IMG/VR virus record: IMGVR_UViG_3300022661_000054
DNA length: 64,000 nt
From: a virus
Lineage: Duplodnaviria > Heunggongvirae > Uroviricota > Caudoviricetes
Reading direction: 5' to 3' (one strand)
The notes below the pieces were generated by a model. That model searched no databases, was not told the DNA's origin, and was given only the letters and a program-made list of their open reading frames with translations. Both the position numbers and the translations under genes were made by a program. This document shows, piece by piece, positions 56,819 to 61,542 of this stretch. Position 1 is the stretch's first letter. Each line of letters opens with the position of its first letter.

Positions 56819-57517
56819 TTAAGGATTCCACACAAAACCTTCTTTAGCTAATCGTGCCTCTACAGCTTCAATTAACTCACCGCTCCAAAGCTGATTCATT
56901 ATGAACTCTTCAATAGTGTTTGTTGTTGTAATTAACTTCTCATTTAAAAAACCATTAAAACGACCAAGTGGGTAGTGTTCTAAGTCTACGTTATTATCAT
57001 TAATTTTACGGATTTCAATAGTAGTATTTTTACAATCAATTAAAAAATCAGCTTTATGTAGACTAGCTCGCGAACCGCCTCTGAAATTTCGCTTAACCTC
57101 ATAAGTGTTACCTTCAGAATCTACTAAGTCTGGTCTAGCATTACCAGAACCTGACTTAAAAACATAGTGAGAGTCATCACCAAACATAAGTTTTGGTAGC
57201 GTAAAACCAGAAAGAATATCTGTCCATTCCTTCTCATTACTATTATAAACAATCTCAAGCTCAGCTTTATTTGCATTATAAAAAGTAATTACGTCTTTAA
57301 GGCATTCGTCTAGGTTTCTTATTAATCTTTGATTATTAACATAATAAGGAATATTATGACAAATTACAGATAATGCCAGTAAGTCGCAAGCTGTTTCGTG
57401 TGAGACAGCTCCACGACCAACTAGTATTTCTCCAACATCATAATAATTAAATTCGCCTTTATTTACTATAATTCTTTGTGCAGCGCCATAAATCAACGCT
57501 TCACTATTGTGATACAT
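56819..57517 (-). CDS. Putative PD-(D/E)xK nuclease-fold protein
   Basis: RPDLVDSEGNTYEVKR. Confidence 0.45.
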   Translation of the reverse strand: MYHNSEALIYGAAQRIIVNKGEFNYYDVGEILVGRGAVSHETACDLLALSVICHNIPYYVNNQRLIRNLDECLKDVITFYNANKAELEIVYNSNEKEWTDILSGFTLPKLMFGDDSHYVFKSGSGNARPDLVDSEGNTYEVKRNFRGGSRASLHKADFLIDCKNTTIEIRKINDNNVDLEHYPLGRFNGFLNEKLITTTNTIEEFIMNQLWSGELIEAVEARLAKEGFVWNP

Positions 57518-57528
57518 ATAATTCTCCT

Positions 57529-58680
57529 TTAAAACTCTAAATCAATACCCTCAGTAATTGTCTTATAAATAGCATCTTCAGGAAGCTCAGGATGCTTAGC
57601 GTATAGCTTAGTGAAGGCTTCATCACGGTCTAGACCTTTGTCTGTTAACTTTTTAAATTCTTCTTGTACAGCAACAGCATACTCAGAAGTATACCAACGA
57701 GACTCGATAGCAGGGTCACACTTCATAGGAACATCAATATAAGGAGCTGCAGCATCAATCATAATTCTAGGAAGAATCTCTGAAGCCTGTTCAGCATAAA
57801 GTGCAGGACATTCAAGCATAACTTCATCGTGAATAGTCATAACAAGTTTAGCGTTGAGTTCTTTAAGCTCTTGACTGTTGTGAATCTGAATCATAGCTAA
57901 CTTAGTAAGTGAAGCTGCACTGCCTTGAATTCTAGCGTTAAGACACTGACGCTCTGCCTGAGCGATACGGCCTGTATTAGCAGACAGGATTACACCCTGC
58001 TTCATAGCTTCTTGAGCTAGCTGCTCAAAGTCTTTATTATTACGAGTCATTTTTGCTCTATTTACCCAAGAAGTTAGGGTAGCATCAATTAAAGGACGAT
58101 TTTCACATCCCAAAATAGGGTTAAAGGTCTTAGCTTCTACAGTAGCCTCATCTTTATAAGTAGCCTCGTAAGGATTTAAGAAGTAATCTGTAAGATGTCT
58201 TCTTCTGCCGGCCCAGTCTTCCACATAGCCATGAGTTCTTAAAAACTCTTTAGAGCTGTTAATAAGCTCTTCTACCTTAGGAAAGCTTTTAAAGAAGTTA
58301 TCAAAAATCTCCTGAGCTTCTGCCTTGGTTTTACCTGTTCTAGCAGCAAGCGTGCCGGTACCCATACCATAAGTAAGAGCAAGAAGTACCATTTTAGCAA
58401 CAGAACGGCGCTCTTTACCAGCTTTATTTAGGTGTGTTTTATGGCCGCACACAGTCTGTTTGCCGTCAAGCTCGATCACAGTACCTTCAGGATAGTGTTC
58501 GAGGTTATCTTCATAGTTATTATTGTAAATATTGGCTGCGATAACACAATAAAGGTCCTTACCTTCAAGATAGGCCTGTCTCATTGCAGGGTCTCCGCCA
58601 AGGAATGTAGTAATACGAGGTTCCTGAGCCGAATAGTCAGAACCTACAAGTTTATATAAAGTTCTAGTTTTTACTTTCAT
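57529..58680 (-). CDS. polA: Family A DNA polymerase, C-terminal part (motifs A, B, C)
   Basis: GSDYSAQEPR, RSVAKMVLLALTYG, NARIQGSAA and MTIHDE. Confidence 0.92.
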   Translation of the reverse strand: MKVKTRTLYKLVGSDYSAQEPRITTFLGGDPAMRQAYLEGKDLYCVIAANIYNNNYEDNLEHYPEGTVIELDGKQTVCGHKTHLNKAGKERRSVAKMVLLALTYGMGTGTLAARTGKTKAEAQEIFDNFFKSFPKVEELINSSKEFLRTHGYVEDWAGRRRHLTDYFLNPYEATYKDEATVEAKTFNPILGCENRPLIDATLTSWVNRAKMTRNNKDFEQLAQEAMKQGVILSANTGRIAQAERQCLNARIQGSAASLTKLAMIQIHNSQELKELNAKLVMTIHDEVMLECPALYAEQASEILPRIMIDAAAPYIDVPMKCDPAIESRWYTSEYAVAVQEEFKKLTDKGLDRDEAFTKLYAKHPELPEDAIYKTITEGIDLEF

Positions 58681-60545
58681 TAAAGTTTCCTCACAATCAA
58701 TTCATATTCCTTCTTCACAACATCATAATGAATAACCTCAAGGACCACAGGACCTTCATCTGTTAAGATCTGGTCAAGTGCTTTTAAGTCTTTTCCGTAC
58801 TTCCAACCGTCAACGGTTTCGATTTCAGAAACCTCTGGAATGGTAATACTATCTGCCTCAACTTCTACTTCATTAAATTCTTTCTTAGCAGTAAACAACA
58901 TACGCGTAATTTTACCATCACCGCGAGAAGGAATATTCTGAGAGTTAATACCTGAGATTTCAACAGGCGTATCACCATCAAGGAATTTAAACTCACCACC
59001 AGAAGAGAAACGACCAGTGTCAGTACCAACAGAGTTGAGCTTATAACGAATACGTCCGTCAGGCCAATGCTGTGCAAGTGCAGGAATTACGTCGATATAG
59101 GTTGAAATCAGCTTAACAATACCTCTACGCTCAAGAATCAGCTTACACAATGCAATATCAGTACGCTCAGCCAAAGCTTCCATTTCGTCTTTACCGGTAC
59201 CTCTTGGAGACTTCTTACTAACCGTTGGACACTCAAGAATGTCATAGAATAAAATTGCAAGCTGAGTAGGCGAAGCTAGATTAATAGGATCACCTAACTG
59301 TTCAATAGGTGCTTTGCCTACTTTATAACGTTTACCAGTTTTTTTATCTATAAATGGATATTTTTCCTCAAGTTTCGCTTGAGATAACTTAGATTTTTTT
59401 GGCTCGAACTGCTTAGCTTTTTCAGTTGCACCACTTTTTGGATCAGTTTTCCATTTATTAATCTTAGGTTTTAGTGCTTCTAATTCTTGATCAATTTTTG
59501 CATCAATATCTTCCAAGTTCTGATTAAATTTTGTTCTAAGTCTTTCGCCAAACTCCTGGTCAATACAGACACCAATAAGCTCAATATCACCGGCTACCTT
59601 AACGATAGGCATTTCAATATTAGTAAACAACCAATAAAGACGTTCATTACCAGGAGCCGTCAAAATAGCAACCTGATATACATAAAGTTTATCAGTCATC
59701 ATAGAGTCAGTAGCTGCATAAAGAGCGAAAATTTCAGGATCTACATACTTATATGGAACTATAAACAAATGTTCAATATCATATTTAGCTTGTGTTGGGT
59801 CGATTTTATCAATATACTGCCATTTCAAACCCATTTTTTCATTCTCATTGATGGTATGGGCACCGATCATGGTGTCCCAGTCAGGCTCAATTTCAATGTT
59901 ACAAGTACACTTAATAACCTCATAGTCGAACTTGCCGTTGTGCATTACAATGAAGGTACCGGCATCTTTAATACGCTGGAGCTGCTCTCGACAATCTTCT
60001 TCAGTAAGCTGCCATGCCAAACGTTCTCCAGTTTCAGGGTCAACATGATTGACAGGAATATATGCCTGCTTACCACCTTCATAATATAAACATAAACCCA
60101 TTAACTGACACGTCATTGGGTCGGTAGAGTTATTGGTCTCAGTATCTATCGCTACTCGGCCAAATTCAATGCACTTAGAAACATAGTCTTCAAATTCTTC
60201 TTTAGTTTTAATAACAACTACATTTTTTCGCTGCTTACCCAACACTTCAAGAACTTTAATTTTAATTAGTGCAAGCTTTTCAGCAAGTGTTACTTTCTTA
60301 GACTTTAGAATCTTGGTTGGGTCAGTTTCAGTTTCCTCTGGCTTAGAGATCTTTTTAACTAGTGCTTCTGGCTTTGGCTTATTGAGTTCGATATTAAAGT
60401 CTTCTAAGCCTTCACCTACAAAAAGGCTTTGATTAGTCAAGCTCTTATCAACAGTTTGTAACTTTTGCTTTTTTACTGGTGCTTCAGTACTAGCTTTAGG
60501 CACCGTATTAACTGTTAAATCAAAGCTATCAAACAGATTGTTCAT
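58680..60545 (-). CDS. polA: Family A DNA polymerase, N-terminal part (3'-5' exonuclease, thumb) with Hint-like tail
   Basis: IDTET, HNGKFD, YAATD, NLASPTQL, TGRFSS and SQNIP; start at MNNLF (GAGG RBS). Confidence 0.9.
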   Translation of the reverse strand: MNNLFDSFDLTVNTVPKASTEAPVKKQKLQTVDKSLTNQSLFVGEGLEDFNIELNKPKPEALVKKISKPEETETDPTKILKSKKVTLAEKLALIKIKVLEVLGKQRKNVVVIKTKEEFEDYVSKCIEFGRVAIDTETNNSTDPMTCQLMGLCLYYEGGKQAYIPVNHVDPETGERLAWQLTEEDCREQLQRIKDAGTFIVMHNGKFDYEVIKCTCNIEIEPDWDTMIGAHTINENEKMGLKWQYIDKIDPTQAKYDIEHLFIVPYKYVDPEIFALYAATDSMMTDKLYVYQVAILTAPGNERLYWLFTNIEMPIVKVAGDIELIGVCIDQEFGERLRTKFNQNLEDIDAKIDQELEALKPKINKWKTDPKSGATEKAKQFEPKKSKLSQAKLEEKYPFIDKKTGKRYKVGKAPIEQLGDPINLASPTQLAILFYDILECPTVSKKSPRGTGKDEMEALAERTDIALCKLILERRGIVKLISTYIDVIPALAQHWPDGRIRYKLNSVGTDTGRFSSGGEFKFLDGDTPVEISGINSQNIPSRGDGKITRMLFTAKKEFNEVEVEADSITIPEVSEIETVDGWKYGKDLKALDQILTDEGPVVLEVIHYDVVKKEYELIVRKL

Positions 60546-60572
60546 ACAAAACCTCACTTTAAAAATATTTAT

Positions 60573-60620
60573 ATATTATACTATACAATAAAAGCGTGCT
60601 CAAAATCAAGCACGCTTTTA
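60573..60620 (-). terminator. Terminator abutting TGTATAGTATAATAT promoter
   Basis: TAAAAGCGTGCT/AGCACGCTTTTA stem (60589-60620); promoter element at 60588-60573. Confidence 0.75.
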
Positions 60621-60636
60621 TATTTATTTAATATAA

Positions 60637-61542
60637 TTAGAAGCTAAAGCCACTAAAATTTCTAGTTGGTGCTGCATTGGTAACTTCAGAAGCTGCATTT
60701 ACAGGTCCTGCATTAAAAGGCGCAGTATTAGCAGCAGTGGTATTGATAGTAGGATTAGCAATAGTAGCTGCAGCTGCCGGCTGGGTCGGTGCTACATAAG
60801 GCTGCTGAGTAACGGTAGCTCCATAAGAACTTGCAACAGCTGCTGCACTGCTAGCAGTCTGCTGTGCGTTAGCCTGCACTCTTTCAGGAAACTGACCAGT
60901 GGTAAGGAAAGCATTAATTTCCTCAGGAGTCTTTTCCCAATAAGAATGGCGAGCAATATTAAAATTATTAAAAGCACTAAAATCAGCAGGAATCATATCA
61001 GGTTTAAATACAGGATGGTCTGCAGGAAGAATATCCATAGAATACGTGGTCTGCATATCACCGGCCTTACCATTACGAGTGATAAGTACAAGAGTGTTAC
61101 GAAGGTCACCAGCAATCATAAGCTTATTAGCAAGCTCACGAGAGAAGGCCGCAGGACGATCCCAGATTACAGGAGCTGGAGCTGTATAACCAGTCGCTGC
61201 ATTAGGGTCACGATAAGACACCATCATAGGAATAAACATCTTTTTAGCAGCCTTGCTAATAGAACCCTTAGGATTAGCATTGTGCGCTGAACAAAGGCCA
61301 CAGCCACCGGCGTTTACACCAAGAGGATTGAGGCAACTAACCTTCATCCACTTACCATTAATTCCAATAGTATGAACAGCTGCAAAGCTGAACTCATCTG
61401 TAGAGCTAAGATTGATACGAGCAATAGCAATATCACCATCGTCTTTTAGCTTAAAATAACCTACCTTAGTTCCATCACCATTGGCATTTGCCTGTGCCTG
61501 TGCTACTACATCCTGATACTGTGCATACGAAAATTGACTCAT
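60637..61542 (-). CDS. Single-stranded DNA-binding protein (gp32-like)
   Basis: YFKLKDDGD, H..C...CGLC, ITRNGKAGDMQTTY and a low-complexity tail; lies between primase and polymerase. Confidence 0.7.
   Translation of the reverse strand: MSQFSYAQYQDVVAQAQANANGDGTKVGYFKLKDDGDIAIARINLSSTDEFSFAAVHTIGINGKWMKVSCLNPLGVNAGGCGLCSAHNANPKGSISKAAKKMFIPMMVSYRDPNAATGYTAPAPVIWDRPAAFSRELANKLMIAGDLRNTLVLITRNGKAGDMQTTYSMDILPADHPVFKPDMIPADFSAFNNFNIARHSYWEKTPEEINAFLTTGQFPERVQANAQQTASSAAAVASSYGATVTQQPYVAPTQPAAAATIANPTINTTAANTAPFNAGPVNAASEVTNAAPTRNFSGFSF

Follow-up and report, generated by a model that had tools for sequence, protein, structure and literature searches.

The 64-kb window analysed here, meaning the whole stretch of DNA from an uncultured large phage, encodes its family A DNA polymerase (PolA) in two adjacent minus-strand ORFs, at 58680-60545/60557 and 57529-58680. 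This locus raises three questions: how the enzyme came to be divided, what the additional residues at the break are, and how the two halves might come together. An initial annotation had proposed that these residues are the remains of a split intein that lost splicing and was retained as a clasp between two subunits.

A polymerase divided between two reading frames

The main features of the locus, excluding the residues added at the break, are as follows.

58680..60557, minus strand: PolA N-part ORF, 625 aa from GTG 60557, comprising in order a Lys-rich leader, the 3'-5' exonuclease, the thumb, the start of the fingers/palm and the N-portion of an insert
59685..60218, minus strand: 3'-5' exonuclease domain, P0001 residues 114-291 (Pfam PF01612, E 1.2e-10)
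58878..59309, minus strand: initial section of the family A polymerase domain, spanning residues 417-560 (positions 22-150 of the Pfam PF00476 profile)
58689..58692, minus strand: GAGG Shine-Dalgarno-like motif, within the final N-part codons and 8 nt upstream of the C-part ATG
58678..58682, minus strand: TAATG stop/start overlap, indicative of translational coupling and identical in the related locus L001
57529..58680, minus strand: PolA C-part ORF, 383 aa, running from the last strand of the insert through motifs A, B and C to the C-terminus
58615..58656, minus strand: motif A (YKLVGSDYSAQEPR), with catalytic Asp15
58366..58419, minus strand: motif B region, residues 88-105, with invariant R92, K96, Y104 and G105
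57823..57831, minus strand: motif C HDE, residues 284-286, with H284, D285 and E286 invariant in the C-part alignment (A3)

Together, the two ORFs carry the exonuclease and motifs A (DYSxxE), B (RxxxKxxxxxxxYG) and C (HDE) of a Pol I-type enzyme. The Pfam DNA_pol_A domain is divided between them: the N-part has the 3'-5' exonuclease and the first section, which closes with the QNIP helix and the ..MLFTAK palm strand in alignment with the polymerases of phages CS15 and Dp-1, and the C-part has the remainder. In motif A, columns D15, Y16, S17, Q19, E20, P21 and R22 are invariant in A3. An alternative N-part start at ATG 60545 gives a protein of 621 aa, which is the form on record as P0003.

At the junction, one base is common to the stop codon TAA (58682-58680) and the start codon ATG (58680-58678). 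Scanning 57300-60800 for sigma-70 promoters and terminators returned no more sites than in shuffled sequences, with no internal promoter at the junction. Coupled through TAATG and provided with its own Shine-Dalgarno motif, the C-part would be translated alongside the N-part to form a two-subunit enzyme. The N-part would supply the exonuclease, the thumb and the palm strand preceding motif A, and the C-part everything from motif A onward.

The split far exceeds chance or an assembly slip and is not an error, because it is shared by over 100 clusters of each half, N-part and C-part, that come from independent metagenomes and show several junction layouts. Among the matches listed there are at least 120 N-part clusters (78-100% identity, all ~620 aa) and at least 120 C-part clusters (77-100% identity), drawn from JGI, ENA, Logan and NCBI assemblies; the same genes occur on contigs of up to ~220-235 kb. 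Searches of GenBank phages found no close relative: at the DNA level the best match covers 53 nt, and at the protein level fused PolAs from phages of Clostridium, Streptococcus and Bacillus match best, at ~30% identity. Junction layouts vary among related split loci, from TAATG in L001 and a 29-nt overlap in another frame in L002 to spacers of 9 nt (L006), 63 nt (L005) and ~90-115 nt (L007/L008). Each locus has its own start codon and Shine-Dalgarno-like motif, with AGGAG/GAGG preceding every C-part start in L001, L002, L005, L006, L007 and L008. The initial annotation had placed the break between the ..RMLFTAK strand and motif A, had described coupling by TAATG with a GAGG ribosome-binding site, and had judged that the split looks evolved; all three statements agree with the ORFs, domain matches, alignments and relatives described above.

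Two accounts in which the enzyme is not genuinely bipartite can be set aside on the same evidence. No point was found in favor of an assembly error or a decaying pseudogene, the chance of which is practically negligible: the halves are separate ORFs with their own start signals, intact in hundreds of independent assemblies and under strong purifying selection, as befits a two-subunit enzyme. Production of one full-length polymerase by programmed frameshifting is highly improbable. The C-part does lie in the -1 frame with respect to the N-part, and the 7 codons preceding its ATG are free of stops, but no slippery heptamer occurs within them, and the junctions of relatives differ in frame offset, overlap or spacer length (9 to ~115 nt), each with its own Shine-Dalgarno motif and start. 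Programmed frameshifting was therefore rejected.

A reduced and inactive Hint domain at the break

Compared with the fused PolAs of Clostridium phage CS15 and Streptococcus phage Dp-1, the window polymerase has ~73 extra residues by alignment, located after the ..FTAK strand and before the motif A strand YKLVGSDYS. This insert is lineage-specific and sits at the tip of the palm hairpin, directly upstream of motif A. It is shared between the ORFs, with ~65-67 residues on the N-part (67 had been counted in the initial annotation) and 8 on the C-part (MKVKTRTL); the breakpoint is 8 residues upstream of its end. Three segments can be distinguished.

58845..58877, minus strand: insert leader strand, residues ~561-571, upstream of the Hint-like core and missing from insert-less PolAs
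58683..58844, minus strand: N-portion of the Hint-like core (mini-Hint), residues 572-625, with Thr572 aligned to intein position 1
58657..58680, minus strand: MKVKTRTL, the last beta-strand of the mini-Hint, carried on the C-part; its equivalent is confidently modelled in the fused polymerase P0126

The N-portion of the core contains a conserved E-I-E-T-x-D-G-W-K-Y-G-K-D motif that resembles intein block A, and the K-T-R-T strand of the C-part is highly conserved. A profile of the insert (A1) was searched against all PDB sequences with hmmsearch, giving four matches, all of them Hint domains or inteins. The best was the gp41-1 intein (E 0.0057, 52 columns, chain residues 9-60), and the others included a bacterial intein-like domain (BIL) and the DnaX mini-intein. 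Against 1.84 billion protein representatives, the same profile gave 158 matches at E<=0.001. When matches outside the family of split and fused PolA inserts were tested, Pfam intein or Hint domains were present in 22 of 23, in unrelated hosts that include terminase, RNR, RecA/UvsX, dUTPase, methylase and SNF2 helicase. One of the 22, P0311, is a fragment of a PolA in which the insert has a true intein next to it.

Structure searches point the same way. An AlphaFold2 model of the fused insert from P0126 reached pLDDT 91 on a shallow alignment of 33 rows. In VIA-align comparison with 48,161 chains, the top 16 rows were all Hint/intein, including PI-SceI domain I (Z 6.6, rmsd 1.8 A, 61 aligned), gp41-1 (Z 6.5, 1.6 A, 60 aligned) and MchDnaB-1 (Z 6.5, 2.2 A, 60 aligned); these matches are consistent in kind and middling in strength, 6.6 being the best Z. 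Structural alignment equates model residue 20 with intein residue 1 and model residues 77-80 with the intein end. Foldseek, which the initial annotation had proposed as a check, ranked inteins/Hint first on both PDB and BFVD, weakly (E about 0.05), with no match to either at E<=0.001. A Pfam scan of the N-part tail and two fused inserts found no Hint family at E<=0.1-1; its matches to P2_C, Barstar and HAS-barrel were at chance level and were discarded. This miss is not counted against a Hint origin, which the profile and fold searches later recovered.

The sequence-profile relationship stands although Pfam Hint models miss the insert, and it is directly supported that the insert is Hint-related. 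The insert is best explained as a shrunken intein remnant, consisting of the N-terminal Hint pattern from block A onward (~60 residues) and a closing strand. That the insert is instead an unrelated small beta-barrel, resembling Hint by convergence, is very unlikely. The Z scores are within reach of common beta arrangements, and the Pfam result fits such a reading. Against it, sequence-only profiles find inteins specifically (4 of 4 in PDB and 22 of the 23 tested outside-family library matches), Hint ranks first in three structure libraries, and the domain starts at intein residue 1 in sequence and in structure alike. In addition, the insertion site adjoins a catalytic motif, which is where inteins typically insert.

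The remnant is equally informative in what it has lost. At the position-1 column, the 121 split N-parts have T in 93, I in 14, V in 12, and S and D in one each; fused forms mostly have K/I/E/V/D, with Thr in one. A conserved Cys/Ser/Thr nucleophile is thus absent. The block B TxxH pattern was sought in the same regions, and T..H was found in 1/121 split tails and 1/18 fused inserts, at no conserved position. At the C-terminal end, Leu8 of the C-part occupies the terminal-Asn position of inteins and Tyr9 that of the +1 nucleophile. Among 100 C-parts, the last residue is L in 84, Q in 6, R in 4, and V, P and M in 2 each, never Asn, and position +1 is Tyr in all 100; the C-terminal (H)N followed by Cys, Ser or Thr is thus missing. 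The Hint fold is also incomplete, the core of ~60 residues aligning with ~60 of the 127-217 residues of intein chains. The smallest known inteins have ~125 aa and both Hint lobes.

Real inteins in the same gene family serve as an internal positive control: those between NARIQG and SAAS show Cys1, ..THN and Ser+1. The real inteins found in this polymerase family sit at that site or just upstream of QNIP (P0177, P0311), and a full-size catalytic intein at exactly the mini-Hint site was found in no relative. The absence of catalytic positions predicts that the halves are incompetent for trans-splicing. It is directly supported, as read from these columns, that the insert is non-catalytic and that everything required for splicing appears to be gone.

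Joining of the halves by trans-splicing through an atypical minimal intein is consequently extremely improbable. The frequent Thr in the position-1 column would favor it, but this residue is replaced by I or V in 26/121 N-parts, and TxxH, a terminal Asn/Gln/Asp pattern and a suitable +1 residue are all wanting. Moreover, half of the fold is missing, and the real inteins of the same family retain Cys1, HN and Ser+1.

These results match two further statements of the initial annotation, that the N-part extension is Hint-like (by profile searches and three structure searches) and that Cys/Ser1, TxxH and a terminal HN are absent (across 121 N-parts and 100 C-parts). Its comparison of MKVKTRTL with the start of a split C-intein stands in part: in the model, the peptide supplies the strand that the domain lacks, but the likeness is only to the last strand of the fold. 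The intein counterpart of this strand differs between methods, the sequence alignment pointing to the N-terminal half of gp41-1 and the structural alignments running from the first to the last intein residue.

Order of shrinkage and fission

The history of the insert can be read from fused relatives. In at least 19 fused polymerases, the dead mini-domain is contiguous and has ~75 residues; other fused relatives lack the insert and have 24-26 residues from QNIP to DYS. Since fused and split inserts share their reduced size and layout, the shrinkage predates the fused/split divergence. A tree of the C-part region rooted on Dp-1/CS15 nests the split clade of the window (support 100) within a larger clade (99) otherwise made up of fused forms with the insert. 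Deeper fused-with-insert lineages are also present, and a second split lineage (P0125/P0130) occurs elsewhere in the tree. A single split clade is rejected by the AU test (p 0.00125). The tree is derived from the C-part only with a 'quick' method, and phage recombination could blur the order of events. As inferred from this tree, at least two separate breaks of the gene fell in the same loop. The mini-Hint would predate the break, because it is contiguous in fused sisters and outgroups and the split arose at least twice; the gene was thus broken within a mini-Hint that was already dead and until then contiguous.

This order bears on the history implied by the initial annotation, in which a working split intein broke the polymerase, lost splicing and shrank, and which would make the fused forms later re-fusions. 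Each of two adjacent ORFs of a single host gene does carry part of a Hint domain; gp41-1, which gives the closest sequence match in the PDB, is itself a split intein found naturally in phage replication genes (PMC2677866); and the loop in which the gene is broken separates the closing strand from the N-terminal strands of the Hint domain. Split inteins, however, are canonically divided at a different position. Both split lineages have fused-with-insert forms as sisters and as outgroups, the split forms do not group in a single clade, the shrinkage is older than the fused/split divergence, and many independent in-frame re-fusions would be required. A decayed split intein is thus not upheld, and we consider this history quite unlikely. 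The survey of homologues that the initial annotation had suggested recovered split and fused-with-insert states, but no intact catalytic intein at the site.

The account that we consider likely overall is a two-subunit PolA that was broken inside a dead, previously contiguous mini-Hint and whose halves are held together non-covalently. The tree suggests three steps. An intein would have invaded a highly conserved site; it would then have lost splicing, been tolerated as a surface insert and been cut down to the mini-domain; finally, on two or more occasions, the gene would have broken in the loop that leads into the last strand of the mini-domain. The break itself may have followed a transient invasion by an endonuclease gene, as in the 'fractured gene' model (PMC2677866), with no such gene left here. 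No free-standing homing endonuclease gene lies between the halves in the window, where the ORFs overlap by one base, and the spacers of L001, L002, L005, L006, L007 and L008 contain no ORFs, leaving no endonuclease gene at these six loci.

Several known systems share features with this locus. Fractured genes with natural split inteins are known from phage replication genes (gp41-1, NrdJ-1 and IMPDH-1; Dassa et al. 2009, PMC2677866). Their inteins are complete (~125 aa), catalytic and trans-splicing, with the endonuclease gene still present at most loci; in the gene-breaking model drawn from them, such a gene enters the host gene, contributes a stop and a start, and subsequently disappears (PMC2677866). 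This model would fit the clean junction of the window, which likewise has adjacent ORFs of a phage replication enzyme, each with part of a Hint domain. In contrast to the fractured genes, the window has ~60 residues left, lost catalytic positions and no endonuclease gene, its break precedes the last strand, and the domain appears to have been dead and contiguous first. Cyanobacterial DnaE and Nanoarchaeum equitans PolB are also replicative polymerases encoded by a pair of genes whose broken ends carry pieces of Hint, but their halves are ligated covalently by trans-splicing (PMC2677866, PMC4760082) and they belong to other polymerase families, whereas the window enzyme is of family A and is predicted to be incapable of splicing.

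Canonical LAGLIDADG inteins (P0123, P0125, P0128, P0130, P0169) occur in the same host gene and phage group and share the block-A-like N-terminal pattern of the mini-Hint. They differ in having ~358 aa, an endonuclease domain, Cys1, ..THN and Ser+1, and they lie between NARIQG and SAAS, ~245 residues downstream of the mini-Hint. Engineered split inteins with a 6-residue C-fragment ('S11' type) are catalytic and have their fold completed by a short final strand. The window is similar in that the second chain supplies a short final strand, with sequence and structural alignments differing on its equivalence to block G. The thioredoxin-binding loop of T7 gp5 is a thumb insert of a family A polymerase that binds a host processivity factor; it too is an extra module in a surface loop of the polymerase domain, but it is not Hint-derived and the window insert lies elsewhere.

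Assembly of the halves and significance

The initial annotation had also suggested a two-chain prediction of strand complementation by MKVKTRTL, and this was performed with ESMFold2 on the C-part and N-part residues 530-625. The pair scored 0.77, compared with 0.00 for the best of 3 controls. This mark is reached by 58/80 solved complexes and 2/110 mismatched pairs, a calibration that is only approximate here because the alignments were custom-made; in addition, halves of split genes tend to pass through their likeness to solved polymerases. At least 75% of contacts agreed between runs, with partner pLDDT of at least 74. The lowest expected errors link C-part residues 1-11, the predicted main interface, with N-part residues 553-566 and 573-580, and C-part residues 276-295 and 326-334 are also placed in contact. 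In the model, the first strand of the C-part sits between two strands of the N-part insert and pairs with the insert leader strand.

On this model, the first 8-11 residues of the C-part would insert post-translationally as a beta-strand between two strands of the N-part insert, closing the mini-Hint and zipping up the split palm hairpin. Together with ordinary palm/fingers contacts, this insertion may yield a non-covalent complex, in which no peptide bond would join the halves. The mini-Hint thus probably helps to clip the polymerase halves together.

The need for such a clip can be questioned. Non-intein splits are known from the 'DNA polymerase part I/II' of LUZ24-like phages (PMC3890496) and the PolA of a marine cyanophage lineage (bioRxiv 10.1101/325100), and DNAP-N and DNAP-C of PhiKZ form a stable 1:1 complex, showing that such complexes can be stable and active (bioRxiv 10.64898/2026.09.30.755723). 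As in the window, the polymerase is made as two polypeptides and requires non-covalent assembly; an intein-derived domain at the break is reported for none of them, and PhiKZ has a family B enzyme. It is accordingly conceivable, if fairly unlikely, that the mini-Hint is a tolerated relic, that the ordinary core interface holds the halves and that strand exchange adds little. The stability of the PhiKZ complex favors this reading, as do the many active-looking fused relatives that lack the insert and the modelled contacts at C-part residues 276-295 and 326-334. The insert also evolves 3-5 times faster than the core, and its contribution to assembly may therefore be small. On the other side, it remains under purifying selection, looser than that of the core (dN ~0.27-0.49 vs 0.08-0.12; dN/dS ~0.14-0.40, with dS saturated), and its K-T-R-T strand is conserved. 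Both independent fissions fell in the same loop of the mini-Hint, and the strongest modelled contacts are those of the first 11 C-part residues with the insert.

We tentatively propose, as a possibility somewhat short of probable, that a dead, half-sized intein was re-used as a non-covalent strand-exchange joint, and that its presence at the motif A hairpin made the gene breakable, with two lineages independently splitting it in the same loop of the relic. In theory, inteins that lose splicing are lethal or quickly deleted, and clear 'fossil' inteins are rare. No comparable case of a degenerate, relic, domesticated or non-splicing intein was found in the open-access full-text literature. Here, in a large group of uncultured phages, an essential enzyme retains a Hint remnant of ~60 residues beside its catalytic motif, in some cases within a single chain and in others divided between two.

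These findings have consequences for annotation and beyond. Such a polymerase is annotated as a pair of 'DNA polymerase I-like' genes, which could be mistaken for pseudogenes. The mini-Hint represents a natural minimal Hint scaffold and, through strand complementation, a possible small natural heterodimerisation tag. The split PolA provides a test case for tolerated gene fission in an essential enzyme. If the proposed re-use is correct, these phages would hold a natural record of the whole path from an intein, through a non-splicing insert, to the docking module of a two-subunit enzyme.

The polymerase genes and their break

One family A DNA polymerase (PolA) is encoded in the window by two minus-strand ORFs, the N-part and the C-part. 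The following features define the locus:

60557 (GTG) or 60545 (ATG) to 58680, minus strand: N-part; the ATG form, of 621 aa, is recorded as P0003
60218-60557, minus strand: N-part residues 1-113, a Lys-rich extension of ~110 residues ahead of the exonuclease, with no Pfam match
58682-58680, minus strand: N-part stop codon TAA
58680-58678, minus strand: C-part start codon ATG, sharing one base with the stop
58680 to 57529, minus strand: C-part
60575-60621: hairpin with a 13-bp stem and T runs on either side, separating the upstream gene (60637-61542) from the polymerase and overlapping a promoter-like TTGAGC-17-TATAAT (minus strand)

Such promoter-like sites are no commoner in the region than in its shuffles. 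A GAGG is located 8 nt upstream of the C-part ATG. Pfam assigns the 3'-5' exonuclease and DNA_pol_A profile positions 22-150 to the N-part, with the remainder of DNA_pol_A in the C-part. The C-part retains motif A (D15), motif B (R92, K96, Y104, G105) and motif C (H284-D285-E286), and these residues do not vary in an alignment of 36 relatives. In GenBank, the fused phage enzymes closest to it (~30% identity) are those of Streptococcus phage Dp-1 and Clostridium phage CS15, and both were aligned with the two parts. Relative to these, ~73 additional residues follow the palm strand ..FTAK and precede the YKLVGSDYS strand of motif A, and the gene breaks 8 residues short of the end of this insert. 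The initial annotation had thus described the split and the extra residues before motif A accurately.

The split is a genuine, long-standing feature. With the final 156 N-part residues as query, 784 proteins were retrieved; the 120 matches listed are 78-100% identical, share a common end position and are mostly 614-658 aa long, a few being truncated fragments of 382-542 aa. The C-part search retrieved 837 proteins, with 77-100% identity among the 120 matches listed, most of which open with a short K-T-R-T strand. The sources span many independent assemblies (JGI, ENA, Logan, NCBI) and contigs of up to ~220-235 kb. Junctions at related loci are as follows:

L001: TAATG
L002: 29-nt overlap, in the other frame
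L006: 9-nt spacer
L005: 63-nt spacer containing TTGACA-17-TATAAT
L007 and L008: spacers of ~90-115 nt

Each of these six loci has an AGGAG/GAGG-like motif and a separate start codon. An assembly error is excluded because related loci from independent assemblies retain the split with different junctions, and the initial view that the split had evolved is upheld. Frameshifting is disfavored, since the junctions vary between loci and have their own starts, and no slippery site was found at the window junction. At L005 (3937-4001), the spacer holds a perfect TTGACA-17-TATAAT and a AGAGGTGA motif ahead of a TTG start, and the C-part there may have its own promoter.

A sub-clade of relatives outside the window encodes the polymerase in three ORFs (L007:3884-4060, L008:3354-3520): the N-part, an ORF of 26-29 aa ending ..YKLVGSDYSAQE-stop, and a C-part beginning MTEPRITTF. 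Motif A in this form holds eight additional bases (ATGACTGA), which produce GAA-TGA together with an ATG that overlaps it. If the Glu-tRNA hopped 8 nt from GAA onto the downstream GAG, exactly the normal SDYSAQEPR would result. The three-ORF form occurs in at least 20 clusters among those listed, some with 18-51 member sequences, and their C-parts start with MTEPRITTF, MRQAYLEG or MTRAYL. Some C-parts starting MSKSIKTRT.. or MSKSVRTRT.. have a 4-residue insertion within motif A (SDYS-QRKS-AQE), where the three-ORF forms have their eight extra bases.

Hint ancestry and loss of splicing residues

The Pfam Hint models do not match the insert. A profile built from 33 inserts (A1), searched against all PDB sequences, gave four matches, every one a Hint domain: two gp41-1 intein entries (E 0.0057, 0.0079), a bacterial intein-like domain and the DnaX mini-intein. 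The gp41-1 alignment has 52 columns spanning intein chain residues 9-60. Against 1.84 billion cluster representatives, A1 gave 158 matches at E<=0.001, among them split and fused polymerases as well as long proteins with several matched stretches. Among 23 matches tested outside the PolA insert family, 22 carry Pfam Intein_splicing, Hint, PT-HINT or Hom_end_hint domains; their hosts include terminase, ribonucleotide reductase, RecA/UvsX, dUTPase, methylase, SNF2 helicase and glycosyltransferases. P0311, which belongs to these 22, is a PolA fragment in which a true intein adjoins the dead mini-Hint insert.

Structure searches gave the same assignment. The insert of the fused polymerase P0126 is modeled by AlphaFold2 as an all-beta domain of eight strands (mean pLDDT 91). 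When aligned with 48,161 representative chains using VIA-align, its top 16 rows are Hint domains, including PI-SceI domain I (Z 6.6, rmsd 1.8 A, 61 aligned), MchDnaB-1 (Z 6.5, 2.2 A, 60 aligned) and gp41-1 (Z 6.5, 1.6 A, 60 aligned). Prp8, VMA1, the AceL NrdHF split intein, BIL domains and Vint also match, with Hedgehog lower down. The intein's first residue aligns with model residue 20 and its end with model residues 77-80. Foldseek (PDB and viral models), run on the insert model, also ranked inteins/Hint first, weakly (E about 0.05). The absolute scores are middling, and the weight comes from convergence: because sequence-only and structure-only searches of four libraries agree on superfamily and register, we are convinced that the insert represents a shrunken intein. 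The Hint-like character first proposed for the N-part extension is therefore borne out.

The insert is predicted to be unable to splice, as initially suggested. The intein position-1 column in 121 split N-parts is Thr (93), Ile (14) or Val (12), and in fused forms mostly K/I/E/V/D, with Thr in one. A conserved TxxH is absent from the split and fused inserts checked. Where the terminal Asn would align, 100 C-parts have Leu (84), Gln, Arg, Val, Pro or Met, and their +1 residue is always Tyr. What remains is ~60 core residues and a 12-residue leader strand, half the size of gp41-1.

Real inteins in C-parts of the same family serve as an internal control; they are ~358 aa long with LAGLIDADG, Cys1, ..THN and Ser+1. 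They interrupt NARIQG/SAAS in the related split polymerases P0123, P0125, P0128, P0130 and P0169; the window has no intein at the matching position, between 57921 and 57922 (C-part residues 253/254). Inteins also occupy a third site, immediately ahead of the QNIP helix and ~30 residues upstream of the mini-Hint site, in P0177 (residues ~449-775, with an HNH domain) and P0311 (residues 13-147).

Previous work describes 'fractured genes' and split inteins in phage replication genes (PMC2677866), DnaE and PolB with split inteins (PMC2677866, PMC4760082) and phage polymerases split without inteins (PMC3890496; 10.1101/325100; PhiKZ, 10.64898/2026.09.30.755723). Our search of the open-access literature turned up neither a family A polymerase containing a contiguous dead mini-Hint nor a gene broken within a remnant of this kind.

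Probable joining of the halves and order of events

The initial annotation raised the possibility of strand complementation by MKVKTRTL, which opens the C-part. In the fused model, its counterpart is the last strand and a confident part of the sheet. The window C-part and N-part residues 530-625 were modeled as two chains with ESMFold2, using author-built alignments (A3, A2). The score was 0.77, compared with 0.00 for the best of three controls; 58 of 80 solved complexes attained the two-chain mark, as did 2 of 110 mismatched pairs. Contact agreement between runs was at least 75%, with partner pLDDT of at least 74. The lowest-error contacts join C-part residues 4-9 to N-part residues 557-562 and 576-580, and the C-part N-terminal strand is probably flanked by the leader strand of the insert on one side and its first core strands on the other. 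Resemblance to solved polymerases can let the halves of a split gene pass this test; the insert, however, is without counterpart in these. The model supports strand complementation by the first strand of the C-part. Nonsynonymous change is faster in the insert (dN 0.27-0.49) than in the core (0.08-0.12), but the insert remains constrained, at dN/dS ~0.14-0.40 with dS saturated.

Derivation of this clasp from a split intein, as originally proposed, is not supported. Nineteen fused polymerases (880-1150 aa) among the longer C-part relatives have the same ~75-residue insert in a single chain; P0124 and P0126, for example, share the G-W-K-Y..K-D motif and the closing K-x-R-T-R-Y strand. Other relatives have just 24-26 residues from QNIP to DYS. 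The C-part region was also placed in a maximum-likelihood tree of 70 rows with Dp-1/CS15 as the root. There, the split clade of the window (support 100) falls within a clade (support 99) that otherwise contains fused polymerases carrying the insert, and deeper branches include more such lineages. A second split lineage (P0125, P0130; loci L005, L006) is placed in a different subclade. An AU test rejects placing every split form in one clade (log-likelihood difference 83.3, p 0.00125). On the basis of this topology and test, the dead insert appears to have preceded the split, with the gene breaking at least twice in the same loop. The distribution of the insert is patchy, with at least six changes forced by well-supported branches. 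This would fit an element that was mobile in the past, or recombination that removed the insert repeatedly.
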